From: Candidatus Baldrarchaeum yapensis
GTDB taxonomy: Archaea; Asgardarchaeota; Baldrarchaeia; Baldrarchaeales; Baldrarchaeaceae
Assembly: GCA_016840465.1 (NCBI GenBank)
Contig: JAEOSH010000072.1
Coordinates: forward strand, 1-9,236
DNA length: 9,236 bases
Direction of reading: 5' to 3'
The notes beneath the pieces are model-generated. The model ran no database searches. It saw only the letters and a program-made list of their open reading frames with translations, and had not been told where the DNA came from. The position numbers were made by a program, and so were the translations under genes. Position 1 is the first letter of the stretch; the number at the start of each line of letters is the position of its first letter. Shown here piece after piece: positions 4,770 through 9,236 of this stretch.

Positions 4770-5242
4770 CACCGCTCGCTCATAGCCTGATATCGGCAAT
4801 ATACATGGCCACGCTCATAACGCCATTTGCACTGGCGGCACAACTCGTCATAAGGGTCAGATCGAGAAGATGGCGCCAATTCAGGAGTTTCCTTCTGGTG
4901 TTATCCGCGCCAGCCTTATGGCTCAACGCGAAAATCCGCCGTTACGTCGAGAGAGCGGAGCCATCCGGGATTGTCAAGAATGTTGCGCTCGCATTCTTAC
5001 CCTTCATGATAATGTTCTCAATAGCAACGGCAATCCTCGCATTTTATGAAGTGCTTGGATTTTTGACGGTAATATTGGCGTTTCCATTCCTCATGTGGGC
5101 CCTCCCGAGCACCCCACCCCTCCGGAGGGCCCTCGAGTCCATGAGGGCATCAAGAGATGGACCTCTCACACTTGCCCTCGGAATCGCAACATTAATATTG
5201 GTGATAGCCGCAGTTTTGCGGGTGCTGGCCCTAATATCATAA
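4766..5242 (+). CDS. Hypothetical polytopic membrane protein (158 aa, ~4 TM)
   Basis: ATGA start/stop overlap with the upstream gene at 4766-4769. Hydrophobic helices are separated by Arg-rich loops (RVRSRRWRQFR, RRALESMRASR). Confidence 0.75.
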   Translation: MTPLAHSLISAIYMATLITPFALAAQLVIRVRSRRWRQFRSFLLVLSAPALWLNAKIRRYVERAEPSGIVKNVALAFLPFMIMFSIATAILAFYEVLGFLTVILAFPFLMWALPSTPPLRRALESMRASRDGPLTLALGIATLILVIAAVLRVLALIS

Positions 5243-5325
5243 ATCCTGGGCAATTTTCCTCGTCGATCACCGATGGCATGCTTAATTGCCGAATGGGGAA
5301 TATGGGTCGACCTTCGGGTGCCATC

Positions 5326-5348
5326 AATAATTACCGATAGTAATTATT
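5326..5348. promoter_or_regulatory. Perfect inverted repeat, candidate operator for the hom-ask-asd operon
   Basis: AATAATTAC-CGATA-GTAATTATT (9-bp arms, 5-nt spacer), 18 nt upstream of the BRE/TATA. Confidence 0.6.
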
Positions 5349-5366
5349 CACGCAGACAAAGATATC

Positions 5367-5381
5367 GAAAAGAATATATCA
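5367..5381 (+). promoter_or_regulatory. BRE + TATA-like promoter for hom-ask-asd
   Basis: GAAAAGAATATATCA, ~48 nt before ATG 5429. It resembles the element at 3174. Confidence 0.5.
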
Positions 5382-5428
5382 CGAACCCCGTGCAAGATTA
5401 CCCACGATCATCAGGACGTGATGGAAAA

Positions 5429-6427
5429 ATGATCCAGAGGAAACTTGTGGTATCCGGATTCGGAACAGTGGGAAGGGCATTTGTCAGGTTAGTCTTGGAA
5501 AGGAACCTCCTCAGCAGGCTGAGTATTGTCGCAATCGTGGACTCGAGGGGGGCCGCCATCAAAAAGAATGGATTCTCGGCGTCCGAACTGTTAAATGCCC
5601 TGTCCATGCCGCGCAGCCACGTCTCGAAACTGCAAAAATGGGGAGTCCCATCCATCGACACCAGGGGAGTGCTTGAAGAGGTGGACGCCAACGTCCTTGT
5701 GGAGCTGACTCCCAGCAATTACACCGACGGGGAACCGGGTCTCTCAAATGTAAGGGTGGCAATGGACAGAGGAATGGACATAGTTCTCGCAAACAAGTCG
5801 CCACTTGCACTGGAGGGCCTAGAACTCATGAGAAGGGCGGAGAGGAAGGGGATCAGAATACTTTACAGGGCGACTGTCATGGGCGGAACCCCCCTCATCC
5901 CCCTAATCTCGTCGATAAAGAACAGCATAAGGTCGATACACGGAATCCTCAATGCAACAACGAATTACATACTCACGCGCATGTGCGAAGATAAGATCCC
6001 GTTCAGCGAGGCGCTGAGAAGAGCACAGGAGGAGGGAATCGCAGAGGCGGATCCCACTCTCGACATCGACGGGTATGACCCCGCCGCAAAACTTGCAATC
6101 CTAGCATGCACCCTCGGCTACGACCTCCGAATTCACGACATCGAGAGGGAAAGTCTAAGATCCCTAGACTTAGAAGAAGTACTGCGGTCGCTTCAGGAAA
6201 GTAGCGTACCAAAATACGTTGCAAGGCTCGAAATATCCGATTCCAAACCGCGCGCTTCCGTTAGGGTCGAGTATATTGGACCCACCGACCCGTTAATCGC
6301 AATCAGGGGGATGTATAACGGCGTCCATATCAGAACCCTCGAAAACGAAATTTTCCTGATGGGAATGGGCGCAGGCGGTCGTGTAACTGCCGAGGCGGTC
6401 CTCGAGGACGTTCTATCGCTGGGGTGA
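5429..6427 (+). CDS. hom: Homoserine dehydrogenase (332 aa, no ACT domain)
   Basis: Motifs GFGTVG, VLVELTP, ANKSPLA, ATVMGGTPLI, GILNATTNYIL, AEADPTLDIDGYDPAAKLAIL and GAGGRVTA. The start is placed at ATG 5429 (MIQRKLVVSG) because the 5273-5428 extension covers the promoter and looks non-coding. Confidence 0.95.
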   Translation: MIQRKLVVSGFGTVGRAFVRLVLERNLLSRLSIVAIVDSRGAAIKKNGFSASELLNALSMPRSHVSKLQKWGVPSIDTRGVLEEVDANVLVELTPSNYTDGEPGLSNVRVAMDRGMDIVLANKSPLALEGLELMRRAERKGIRILYRATVMGGTPLIPLISSIKNSIRSIHGILNATTNYILTRMCEDKIPFSEALRRAQEEGIAEADPTLDIDGYDPAAKLAILACTLGYDLRIHDIERESLRSLDLEEVLRSLQESSVPKYVARLEISDSKPRASVRVEYIGPTDPLIAIRGMYNGVHIRTLENEIFLMGMGAGGRVTAEAVLEDVLSLG

Positions 6428-6431
6428 GAGA

Positions 6432-7526
6432 ATGGTTGTCGTTGCGAAGATCGGCGGATCCCTACTCACGTCCGCGCATGACTACATGAAGGTCGTGGAG
6501 AAGATAAAGGAACTCGCTCGGGAAGATGACGTCATCGTAGTGGTTTCCGCAATGAAGGGCGTCACCTCCAAACTAATTGAAACCCTATCATCTGAAAACC
6601 CCGAGAGGGAACTACGTGAGATATTCGCGAAGCACATCTCCATTTTGGAGGCAGTGTCTCCATCGCCGGAGAAGGGAATAAGAGAGATGAGCAAGCTCCT
6701 CGATGAGGCCCTGAACGGAATCAGGCGGTTCAAGGCGGGAATGATCGACGGAAAGGACATAGTGCTCTCCATGGGGGAAAGACTCTCGATAATAATACTG
6801 AGGGAGGCCCTCAGGCGGGAAAACATCAGGGGAGTATCACTGGAGGGGGGAATCGCCGGGATAATCACGGATGAAGAGTTCGGAAACGCGAAACCGATAA
6901 TGGATGAGTGCATGCGGACAATACCATCAGTACTGCTACCAATCCTCGGCGAGGAAACGGTGCCCGTGGTCGCAGGATTCACGGGAGTGACTAGAGACGG
7001 GAGGATAACAACCCTCGGAAGGGGAGGGTCGGATCTCACCGCATCCCTGATAGCATCCGTGCTGAGGGTCCGCCTACTCCTTCTATACACAGACGTGCCG
7101 GGAATCATGACAGGGGATCCCAGCACCGTAAACCACGCCAGAACGATACCCGCAGTTGGCTTAGAAGAGGCAGACGCCATGGCAAGACTGAGAGTCAAGA
7201 AGTTCCACCCACTGACGTTCATGCCGATCATGAGACTGAAGCCCCGGCGCATGGGCATCTTCATAGGAACCCTCGACGGCAGGGGAACAAGGGTCGTCAG
7301 AAGGCGGGTCCCCCCACCGATAAAAGTGGTATCTCCAAGAGGCGGGGAAATTGTGGTCATCGGTCACGATCCCTCCTTTCTCCTCGACATCGTAAAGCCC
7401 GAGTGGAAAGTGTCCGTGGTCGCGACAGAGGAGCCCTACGCAATCGTCCGCCCGGAAAACGCAACTAGGAAGATGGAGGTCCTCGACGCAATCCACAGCG
7501 CAATCCTAAAAATGATCGGAGGGTGA
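6432..7526 (+). CDS. lysC: Aspartate kinase (364 aa, short C-terminal tail)
   Basis: Motifs VVAKIGGS, VVVVSAMKGVT, SMGERLS, PVVAGFTG, TTLGRGGSDLTA and YTDVPGIMTGDP. It lies between hom and asd. Confidence 0.93.
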   Translation: MVVVAKIGGSLLTSAHDYMKVVEKIKELAREDDVIVVVSAMKGVTSKLIETLSSENPERELREIFAKHISILEAVSPSPEKGIREMSKLLDEALNGIRRFKAGMIDGKDIVLSMGERLSIIILREALRRENIRGVSLEGGIAGIITDEEFGNAKPIMDECMRTIPSVLLPILGEETVPVVAGFTGVTRDGRITTLGRGGSDLTASLIASVLRVRLLLLYTDVPGIMTGDPSTVNHARTIPAVGLEEADAMARLRVKKFHPLTFMPIMRLKPRRMGIFIGTLDGRGTRVVRRRVPPPIKVVSPRGGEIVVIGHDPSFLLDIVKPEWKVSVVATEEPYAIVRPENATRKMEVLDAIHSAILKMIGG

Positions 7527-7530
7527 CCCG

Positions 7531-8595
7531 ATGGTTGAGAGAATCCCGGTCGCGGTAATGGGTGCCACAGGACTCGTGGGTCAGAGGTTCATACAGCTCC
7601 TCCACAGGCACCCGTGGTTCGAACTGGTATCAATAACTGCATCCGAGAGGAGGATCGGACAGAAGTACGGGGAAACCGTTCGGTGGATGTGGTCCGAAGA
7701 ACCTCCAGAGGAGGTCCAGGAAATGAAACTCTCGCCAACGAACTACGAGGGAGTCAGGGATGCAGAAATAGTCTTCTCCGCCCTGCCATCATCCGTAGCG
7801 AGAGAACTGGAACCGGAACTCGCAAAAAGGGGAAAAATAATCGTGTCGAACGCAAGCCCCTTTAGGATGGATGATGATGTCCCCCTCATAAACCCCGAAA
7901 TAAACCCCGACCACCTAAAACTCATCCCGATCCAGCGAGAGAAAAGAAACTGGAAGGGCTTCATCGCCAAAAACCCCAACTGCACCACCGCAATCCTGAC
8001 ACTCTCCCTGAAACCCCTCCTCGATAACTTCGGAATATCAAACGTCAGGGTCGCAACGATGCAGGCCGTCAGCGGCGCCGGATACGAGGGCGTCGTCTCA
8101 ATGGACATAATCGACAACATCATCCCCTTCATAAAAGAGGAGGAGGAAAAGGTGCACCGCGAAACCAAAAAGATCCTCGGAACCCTCACCAGCAACCGCG
8201 TGGAACCCCTGAACATAGGAGTCTCTGCATCCTGCCACAGGGTCCCCGTCCTCGAAGGACACCTCGAAGCAGTTTTCGTGGAACTCAAAGAAAAACCGGA
8301 AGACGTAAATGGGGTCGTAAAAGCTTTGTCCAACTTCAAGGGGAAGCCCCAAGAACTAAAACTCCCAACCGCTCCCGAAAAACCAATAGTCGTCCGAAGC
8401 GAACCTGACAGACCCCAACCCCGATTCGATAGAATGACTGGCGGCGGAATGAGCGTGGTCGTCGGAAGAATCAGGTGGAGCGAAATAGACCAAAACGAGA
8501 TAAAGTACATGGTCCTCGGAAGCAACACAATAAGGGGAGCCGCCGGAACCGCCGTGCTGATAGCAGAACTGCTAAGGGCGGAAAACATGATCTAA
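7531..8595 (+). CDS. asd: Aspartate-semialdehyde dehydrogenase (archaeal/eukaryotic type)
   Basis: Motifs MGATGLVGQRF, VSNAS, NPNCTT (catalytic Cys), QAVSGAG, CHRVPVLEGH and NTIRGAAG. The operon context with ask and hom favours ASD over the homologous malonyl-CoA reductase. Confidence 0.95.
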   Translation: MVERIPVAVMGATGLVGQRFIQLLHRHPWFELVSITASERRIGQKYGETVRWMWSEEPPEEVQEMKLSPTNYEGVRDAEIVFSALPSSVARELEPELAKRGKIIVSNASPFRMDDDVPLINPEINPDHLKLIPIQREKRNWKGFIAKNPNCTTAILTLSLKPLLDNFGISNVRVATMQAVSGAGYEGVVSMDIIDNIIPFIKEEEEKVHRETKKILGTLTSNRVEPLNIGVSASCHRVPVLEGHLEAVFVELKEKPEDVNGVVKALSNFKGKPQELKLPTAPEKPIVVRSEPDRPQPRFDRMTGGGMSVVVGRIRWSEIDQNEIKYMVLGSNTIRGAAGTAVLIAELLRAENMI

Positions 8596-8788: not shown

Positions 8789-8929
8789 GTGACAAAGATC
8801 ATCCTGAAGCCGAGAAAAAGACTGGGTAGAATGCGCAGAGGCCCTAAACTTGGCAAAATAGTCCCAATAAAAGGTGCAGAAGATGCCGGTAAGAGTAAAA
8901 GTGAAACTGAAAAGCCCGAAAAGCAATAG
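8789..8929 (+). CDS. Possible small basic protein (46 aa)
   Basis: GTG start 6 nt after GGTGA (8778-8782). Sequence is MTKIILKPRKRLGRMRRGPKLGKIVPIKGAEDAGKSKSETEKPEKQ. It overlaps the next gene by 47 nt. Confidence 0.3.
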   Translation: MTKIILKPRKRLGRMRRGPKLGKIVPIKGAEDAGKSKSETEKPEKQ

Positions 8930-9060
8930 GACAATAACGGCACCAGCCCTCCTCAACACAGGCTTTACTACAGATGAACTGGATATCCACGTACCGAAAA
9001 ACGTAGCCGAAGACCTCGGACTGTGGCCTCCGCCAGAAAAATGCCTTGCGGAACTGTTAC
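8883..9060 (+). pseudogene. Archaeal retropepsin-like (clan AA aspartic protease-fold) gene, 5' part, interrupted; breakpoint approximate
   Basis: Manual translation gives MPVRVKVKLKSPKSNRTITAPALLNTGFTTDELDIHVPKNVAEDLGLWPPPEK. ALLNTGF matches the AL-x-D-T-G-F pattern with Asn in place of Asp. GGTG RBS at 8873-8876. The frame stays open to the window end, which is why the ORF track missed it. Confidence 0.7.
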
Positions 9061-9071
9061 GGGATAGTAAG

Positions 9072-9079
9072 CTTAAATA
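9072..9079 (+). promoter_or_regulatory. TATA-like box inside the element's left part
   Basis: (AAG)CTTAAATA, with an ATG at 9106, 27 nt after its end, a typical leaderless-start distance. Confidence 0.5.
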
Positions 9080-9121
9080 CGCATTTGGATATTTTGCTCA
9101 TTTTGATGAAAACTCCTCCAA

Positions 9122-9169
9122 GACCCGCCCCGTCCGTCGGGCCACGATGGTGGCCTATCGGGGCAGGTC
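9122..9169 (+). other. GC-rich stem-loop in the tnpB 3' remnant (possible omegaRNA/reRNA scaffold segment)
   Basis: GACC-c-GCCCCG pairs with CGGGGC-a-GGTC, enclosing the inner stem GGCCAC-GATG-GTGGCC. Confidence 0.55.
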
Positions 9170-9236
9170 GATGAAGTGTAAAAAATGCGGATCGGTATTG
9201 GATAGGGATGTCGTGGCCGTTCTGAACCTTCGGATG

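Follow-up and report, generated by a model that had tools for sequence, protein, structure and literature searches.

The 9,236-nt stretch of DNA analysed here, which we call the window and which is the entire contig C48, stops inside a gene-less miniature transposon of the IS607 type, after the first two thirds of a copy of about 293 nt (9043-9236). This mini-element was derived from an intact, tnpB-bearing parent by one internal deletion, is found with the same junction at several insertion sites, and has kept both transposon ends, a TATA box and the covarying RNA structure of the tnpB 3' end. We read it as a mobile IS607 offshoot that probably makes a promoter-driven guide RNA (omegaRNA) for use in trans by the TnpB of its siblings. 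The features of the window are as follows.

5273-6427: homoserine dehydrogenase.
6432-7526: amino-acid kinase family protein.
7531-8595: aspartate-semialdehyde dehydrogenase.
8883-9042, plus strand: 5' part (53 codons) of an uncharacterised host gene of about 137 aa, split by the element (from homologs and the metagenome contig L068).
9043-9112, plus strand: left end (LE) of an IS607-type element, a genomic repeat, with promoter and start codon inside.
9043-9045, plus strand: GCC, probably target-derived, found at every left junction, the same behind 13 different left flanks.
9072-9079, plus strand: TATA box CTTAAATA; an A/T box is kept here in all LE copies, other genera included.
9106-9108, plus strand: ATG of the HTH (tnpA-remnant) ORF; as judged from full-length siblings, nothing but ATG AAA A is left of it.
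9109-9113, plus strand: deletion junction AAAA/C; LE-side homology extends to 9112, tnpB-side homology starts by 9113.
9113-9236, plus strand: tnpB 3'-end relic in the frame of 9108 (PF07282), with about 32 further codons beyond the contig end.
9122-9169, plus strand: hairpin in the zinc-finger codons (-32.9 kcal/mol, z = -3.7), with compensatory changes across the TnpB subfamily.
9170-9218, plus strand: dispensable spacer, a coding remnant between hairpin and scaffold core, defined by sibling deletions.
9219-9236, plus strand: first 18 nt of an omegaRNA-like scaffold core of about 116 nt (covariance model R1).

The original prediction had named a TATA box at 9072-9079, an ATG at 9106, the 3' end of tnpB in another frame and a strong hairpin, and all four are where it placed them. 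The TATA box would be the element's own promoter, as its position and conservation suggest; the ATG lies 34 nt past the first base of the box, and a start site some 26 nt past the TATA centre would fall near 9101-9102, giving a leader of a few nucleotides. In full-length siblings the sequence goes on from this ATG as ATGAAAATGGAG.. to encode an HTH_17/MerR protein of 61-66 aa. In the window, the +3 frame from 9108/9113 instead carries 43 codons of the TnpB C-terminus, stop-free to the contig end, with the translation ..NSSKTRPVRRATMVAYRGRSMKCKKCGSVLDRDVVAVLNLRM (including ..KCKKCG..DRDVVAVLNL..). Pfam PF07282 (Cas12f1-like TNB) matches window positions 9108-9230 at 27.7 bits, above the cut-off, and intact TnpBs of 388-391 aa can be aligned with the relic codon by codon. 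Its zinc finger is damaged, the first two cysteines both having become Arg where sibling copies have TGT or TGC, and the second CxxC and the DRD motif are intact; in Logan, 9135 is C>T. Both the 70 nt of 9043-9112 and the downstream part recur elsewhere in the genome, each separately, which argues against a chance resemblance; LE copies were found in contigs C52, C88, C49 and C68, in other genera and in the intact element of metagenome contig L063. The mini-elements measure 238-293 nt, their sole ATG frame amounts to 22 aa, and they have no protein-coding capacity.

The family to which the element belongs was decided by its relatives and its ends. The family is IS607 and not IS200/IS605: no Y1 (IS200/IS605) TnpA was found in the genome, and four of the five serine-recombinase matches adjoin tnpB genes, so that the local TnpB elements are of the IS607 type. 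In the LE copies of C52, C88, C49 and C68, the ATG opens an ORF of 60-70 aa, a MerR/HTH_17 domain with homology to the N-terminal part of TnpA in the IS607 elements C96b and C55; this ATG is therefore not the start of tnpB. Neither the mini-element nor its parent has a recombinase catalytic domain, and the parent keeps only the MerR-type HTH of the TnpA N-terminus. All 13 left junctions have an unrelated flank followed by GCCTTG(C/T)G.., which puts the beginning of the left end at 9043/9046 and not at 9061, behind the TTAC of 9057-9060. All right ends read ..GAACC CC directly before the flank, and the right end recurs in C52, C80, C72, C16, C96b and C6, always stopping at ..GAACCC(C). The insertion is precise, with GCC on the left and ..CC on the right, and the element has neither terminal inverted repeats nor a target-site duplication. 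In IS607 recombination, strand exchange takes place at a core dinucleotide common to both junctions, no target duplication arises and inverted repeats are not needed (10.1101/2023.11.20.567912); by this mechanism, CC is probably the crossover dinucleotide and (N)GCC part of the target or TAM. The tip of the left end (TGCC-TGCG-RR-AC-W-GTTA) is common to the mini family and the autonomous C96b element, and the last 58 nt of the right end are 90% identical to those of C96b, although the two TnpBs are only 43% identical. The common tips fit mobilisation of the mini-element by a resident TnpA in trans. The 386-aa TnpB of C96b (G000 C96:32093-33055, minus strand; G000 is the window genome) has ..INRQLNASINL.. 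where the present subfamily has ..LDRDVVAVLNL.., and may lack the last RuvC aspartate; a 242-aa LAGLIDADG-like ORF lies between it and the right end.

The insertion at the window locus could be followed past the end of the contig. Metagenome contig L068 is the same locus, being 99.8% identical to C48:4190-9236, and contains the complete 293-nt element at 4853-5145, with the remainder of the split gene directly after the right end. When the element is removed and one GCC kept, a single ORF results that is collinear with, and equal in length to, the ortholog in G001, a genome of the same order; homologs of this gene are 135-157 aa long and occur in relatives and as paralogs. The right flank of the window copy is thus GATCTTGAGATCC.. 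(the rest of the split gene), and the empty site at this locus would read ..AATGCC on the left, then GATCTTGAG... Contig C27 ends in the same 144 nt as the window and was considered as its continuation; this was rejected, because the rest of the split gene is absent from C27, where the right flank is TATCTCCGCAC.., and present on L068. The copy on C48 and that on C27 are therefore not the same one. A Pfam search with the split gene gave sub-threshold hints only (e.g., Asp_protease_2, E = 0.025), a faint resemblance of the family to retropepsin-type aspartyl proteases. Two of its paralogs (G000 C6:4739-5152 and C55:17173-17583) lie 1-4 kb from other IS607 right ends or elements (C6:5950-6056 and C55:21253-23776, respectively). 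The host genes further upstream (window 5273-8595) are ordinary amino-acid biosynthesis genes. At 9036-9041, the assembled genome has AAAAA, one A more than the AAAA of L068 and of the Logan contigs from four runs; the probable cause is a homopolymer error or a difference between strains. The extra A alone brings the upstream gene fragment into frame with the tnpB relic, and the resulting chimeric frame of 152 aa, open from 8874 through the element, was treated as accidental.

The element has moved. Its junction 22-mer (9103-9124) was found in seven copies on six JGI metagenome contigs, twice on one of them. When C27 is added, L068 is counted as the window's own locus, and the end of L063 and the matching L066 are counted as one, the same junction stands between seven distinct pairs of flanks, i.e., at no fewer than seven sites. 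An identical junction at seven insertion sites identifies a mobile family of gene-less mini-transposons, and not a single relic left in place. In the k=31 Logan unitigs of four runs, 9043-9248 is covered without mismatch across the junction, and two left flanks converge at 9043 on one unbranched unitig spanning 9043-9248. Both contigs of the assembled genome end inside the element because several near-identical copies exist. On its far side, the L066 copy is flanked by sequence that is a 98.8% match to the beginning of G000 contig C68, and L065 matches C27 at 99.4%; these copies therefore belong to the species-level population of the window genome. Among 185,579 species genomes, a scan that may leave out the window's own genome, the junction had no exact match. 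Contig C36 was tried as the empty-site allele of the L064 copy and set aside as not clean, the two sequences being divergent over about 1 kb behind the insertion point.

An intact parent-like element with the same ends was found in the same metagenome, on L063 (Ga0190367_1005354). It is 1392 nt long and encodes a 61-aa HTH ORF and, at L063:2104-3270 on the minus strand, a 388-aa TnpB with the Pfam TNB and OrfB_IS605 domains, which matches solved TnpB structures (e.g., 8bf8 and 8h1j) and in which the D..E..D motifs look intact by eye. The same contig runs into another mini-element, the one matching L066. The mini-element equals the L063 element minus 1100 nt: the parent reads ..GATGAAAA/TGGAG on one side of the deleted stretch and ..CCAGAAA/CTCCTCC on the other, and their product at the mini junction is ..GATGAAAACTCCTCC.. 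(ATGAAAA/CTCC), the slash marking the breakpoint. The original prediction, in which a deletion had joined the start of tnpB to its 3' end, is thus borne out as to the deletion and its right-hand partner, the left-hand partner being the HTH ORF. The microhomology proposed, AAC, is likewise to be replaced by AAA(A) at 9109-9112; the overlap measures 3 nt (AAA), and could reach 5 nt had the parent carried the AAAAAC seen in some relatives. That the nuclease was removed and the promoter box and RNA scaffold were kept, and that a related intact TnpB exists in the same metagenome, agree with what had been proposed. Overhangs of full-length elements in Logan diverge behind 9112 as TGGAGAAGTTGATGAAAG.., exactly the L063 sequence, at a depth of about 170-200 versus about 30 for the window flank, so full-length elements must be abundant in the same samples. 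In the assembled genome itself, no demonstrably intact TnpB of this subfamily was found, the candidate on C88 being open but cut by the contig end and that on C52 having four stops. An uninterrupted arrangement of LE, TATA box, 65-aa HTH ORF, 391-aa TnpB and right end is present in the same-order genome (G001:C42), and eight or more further genomes of the phylum contain the TnpB subfamily, the first ORF of these relatives being an HTH domain alone (46-66 aa), without a recombinase domain. This HTH-only ORF upstream of tnpB stays open in L063 and in seven other genomes (G001, G003, G004, G111, G113, G114 and G115), examples being L008:45-242, L063:3245-3427 (minus strand) and L003:1543-1764, with further instances in L018, L022, L024, L046, L047, L019, L020, L049 and L050; as a conserved partner of TnpB it may have a role of its own, e.g., as a regulator or an end-binding factor.

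What remains of tnpB in the mini-element was found to be structured at the RNA level. A covariance model, R1, was built from five right ends of G000 (113 positions, 36 pairs), and matched at full length in 28 of 28 locus copies, directly after or overlapping the tnpB stop and each time ending exactly at ..GAACCCC. Across the genome it matched eight places, always ending at a transposon boundary. In the R1 alignment, which was itself fitted to the model, 90.7% of cells pair, as against 68% in shuffles and at most 55% with the partners slid, and double (compensatory) changes occur in 27 of the 36 pairs; none of 500 shuffles reached the observed values. Independently of the model, 14 of 20 copies have a stem of 9-16 bp immediately before GAACC on its 5' side (95th percentile of shuffles, 7 bp), and the sequence of this terminal stem differs widely between copies. 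The zinc-finger hairpin covaries in an ordinary MAFFT alignment of 16 tnpB 3' ends, the compensatory changes altering amino acids: pair 30:59 is UA in seven sequences, CG in five and GC in one, and pair 42:52 is CG in nine, AU in three and UA in two. Since IS607 moves as double-stranded DNA (10.1101/2023.11.20.567912), the conserved stems argue for an RNA and not a DNA structure, and they are best read as the scaffold of a TnpB guide RNA. The scaffold core of the window locus lies beyond the window, at L068:5032-5145, and that of the C27 copy at L002:1403-1515; the right end and the strongly covarying scaffold anticipated downstream are present in both. A cmscan of L001-L006 (the window end, the C27 mini copy and four sibling loci or right ends) against Rfam, including RAGATH-18 and the IS605-orfB motifs, gave no match at E <= 1. 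A minimum-free-energy fold of the whole element was set aside as a model, since the flank pairs with the interior, and a long-range 'GGGGTT / GAACCCC' covariation in the first MAFFT alignment was not counted, being an alignment shift.

The mini copies are about 93-99% alike outside indels, and the pattern of their differences bears on whether the retained RNA matters. The first alternative to be weighed is that the mini-element is RNA-inert, a relic that hitch-hikes on TnpA, whose extra sequence has been kept merely through youth and whose transcript, if any, has no role. With copies so similar, conservation says little, and that of the core among young elements could reflect lack of time. Coding has plainly not been kept, the first two cysteines being Arg/Arg, Arg/Cys, Ser/Cys or Cys/Cys by copy; one such change, T>C at 9126 in the codon of the first zinc-finger Cys, costs the hairpin one pair and looks like neutral decay. 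Moreover, the dead, shortened relics C72, C16 and C80 keep the core too, and the RNA-model scores of dead relics (C80 and C52) fall little short of that of the intact element. Against the inert reading, about 226 nt have been kept on the right, far beyond the expected need of a serine-recombinase site, and the family-wide covariation shows that, in the parent, the part retained functions as an RNA. Also against it, three independent internal deletions in siblings (26, 27 and 53 nt) all fall within the 51-nt unstructured spacer and spare hairpin, core and promoter; no spacer column is present in every copy, LE, hairpin and core show only 1-2 gap columns, and just 2 of the 70 LE columns vary. 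Counted roughly by hand, the probability that three random deletions in 292 nt would all fall so is about 4 in 10,000; the copies were collected through the junction 22-mer, to which deletions touching it are invisible, and the cluster could also be a mutational hot spot. Core substitutions among the copies are mostly unpaired, G:U/G:C switches or compensated, the exception being the loop-proximal part of the terminal stem, which is different in intact L063 as well. With seven loci sharing one junction and the later deletions confined to the spacer, the segment was retained among siblings and not randomly decayed, as had been foreseen, and we regard the inert reading as rather unlikely. The mini-element beside L063 has the L063 version of the terminal stem (GGAGGT..ACCTCC; L066:280-392 vs L063:2099-2211), unlike the other minis, and L067a carries a zinc-finger hairpin of the C52/L063 type behind the identical junction; together these suggest gene conversion between mini- and full-length elements.

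The reading that we favour, a mobile IS607 offshoot whose RNA is used in trans, would work as follows. The parent consisted of a left end, promoter, small HTH ORF, tnpB and right end, and a single loss of about 1.1 kb, bounded by short A-runs, joined codon 2 of the HTH ORF to the last 75 or so codons of tnpB. Both ends having been retained, a serine-recombinase TnpA encoded elsewhere could therefore still move the product. The retained TATA promoter now lies about 10 nt ahead of the structured RNA, which comprises the zinc-finger hairpin and then a four-helix core of about 113-116 nt abutting the transposon boundary. Transcription from this promoter would yield a TnpB guide RNA, the guide of which would most likely be the DNA just past the right end, so that the target at the window locus would be the uninterrupted host gene. 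Loaded in trans with this RNA, the TnpB of a full-length sibling would cut the vacated site after excision, and recombination at the cut would restore the mini-element. Searches for second genomic targets of the guides of all seven copies returned chance matches only (2-3 mismatches in 16 nt), as expected of guides that home to their own site. The same result has been counted in favour of a second alternative, by which the RNA is made and acts otherwise, as a decoy that titrates TnpB off full-length elements or as an sotRNA-like regulator: with guides of this kind TnpB cannot be sent to new targets, both scaffold and promoter have been retained, and the first description of the sotRNAs at haloarchaeal tnpB 3' ends was as functional non-coding RNAs (PMC4615843). 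No specific evidence points to such an action, however, and under the homing model a guide should match nothing but its own vacated site; the alternative is accordingly improbable. An assembly artefact, i.e., a chimeric contig end joining one LE to the tnpB 3' end of another element, might be suspected from a junction that lies within a repeat at 124-130 nt from the contig end and from a 144-nt overlap with C27 that resembles a graph artefact, but it can virtually be dismissed, as the same junction recurs in the interior of long contigs from three further metagenome assemblies, one contig having it twice, and, with zero mismatches, in the Logan unitigs of four runs, and near-identical copies account for the contig break. 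A more specific version of the favoured reading is that the mini-elements are hyperparasites, which would use the sibling TnpB in trans for homing and retention, with an omegaRNA made of hairpin and core and a spacer that can be lost; the selected modules would then be the 5' hairpin inside the zinc-finger codons and the core of 113-116 nt. This version is put forward tentatively, as possible and short of probable.

Among known systems, the closest are the gene-less PATE-like IS200/IS605 elements, which encode omegaRNAs for use in trans by the TnpB of other elements (Meers et al., PMC10055086); a PATE with IStron ends has also been described (10.1101/2023.11.20.567912). Like the present mini-element, PATEs have no ORF, keep both ends and the guide-RNA scaffold, are multicopy and depend on TnpA and TnpB from elsewhere. 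The mini-element differs in its parent, an IS607 with a serine recombinase, a double-stranded intermediate and no end hairpins for a Y1 transposase, and further in its archaeal host, in having kept its own TATA-box promoter, and in its origin by one microhomology deletion that is traceable to an intact parent. The IS607 tnpA-tnpB-omegaRNA elements of the CboIStron type (10.1101/2023.11.20.567912) share with the mini family a TnpB with a right-end omegaRNA, the lack of inverted repeats and target duplication, and a dinucleotide at both boundaries (here apparently CC), and precise excision would restore the host gene in both; in contrast, the mini-element is gene-less, its full-length parent has the HTH part of TnpA only, and there is no group I intron. 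The sotRNAs of Halobacterium IS1341-type tnpB (PMC4615843) are likewise archaeal sense RNAs over the tnpB 3' end, but they belong to intact tnpB genes and have measured transcripts, whereas in the mini-element the gene is deleted and the RNA is a predicted one. The RAGATH-18-derived reRNAs of IS607 TnpB (PMC11061315) are similar in being encoded downstream of tnpB, and differ in structure from the present scaffold, consistent with the lack of an Rfam match.

Within the same genome there is a separate family of gene-less IS607 mini-elements, 271 nt long, with some 15 copies that are 86-95% alike (G000 C27:9182-9452, C28:4599-4869, C11:3375-3647 and about 12 more), one of them lying on C27 at a distance of 1.6 kb from the present element's copy there. 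The source of this family is the right end of the IS607 element C96a (related sequence, C96:27912-28027). The two families resemble each other in their ends, promoter box, TnpB scaffold, size class and genome; they have no sequence match, and the present one has the extra 5' hairpin and spacer, and thus represents a second, independently arisen family. Other relics of its subfamily were also noticed, namely a solo 110-nt scaffold core (G000 C72:13034-13144), cores with part of the zinc finger (G000 C16:3029-3141 and C80:5733-5951) and a left end joined to fragments without the right tip (G000 C68:11872-12035). The contig end at G000 C16:3406-3424 reads AGATGTGTATAAGAGACAG on the minus strand and resembles a leftover Nextera/Tn5 adapter.

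Gene-less guide-RNA elements are already known as a kind, and no new principle is added here. What the present family offers is a clean and traceable origin for a guide-RNA-only element, in which one microhomology deletion produced a 293-nt cassette of promoter and putative guide RNA that then spread. It also extends to IS607 and to Asgard archaea an arrangement in which TnpA, TnpB and guide RNA come from different elements, the supply in trans being what the common ends and the scaffold lead us to infer. Through their natural deletions, the sibling copies in effect scan the guide-RNA region, and this could be of use in trimming archaeal TnpB guides for engineering. If the hyperparasite reading is true, the mini-element would be a compact, naturally minimised design of an archaeal guide RNA, and would open a first view of guide-RNA 'cheaters' among Asgard archaea.
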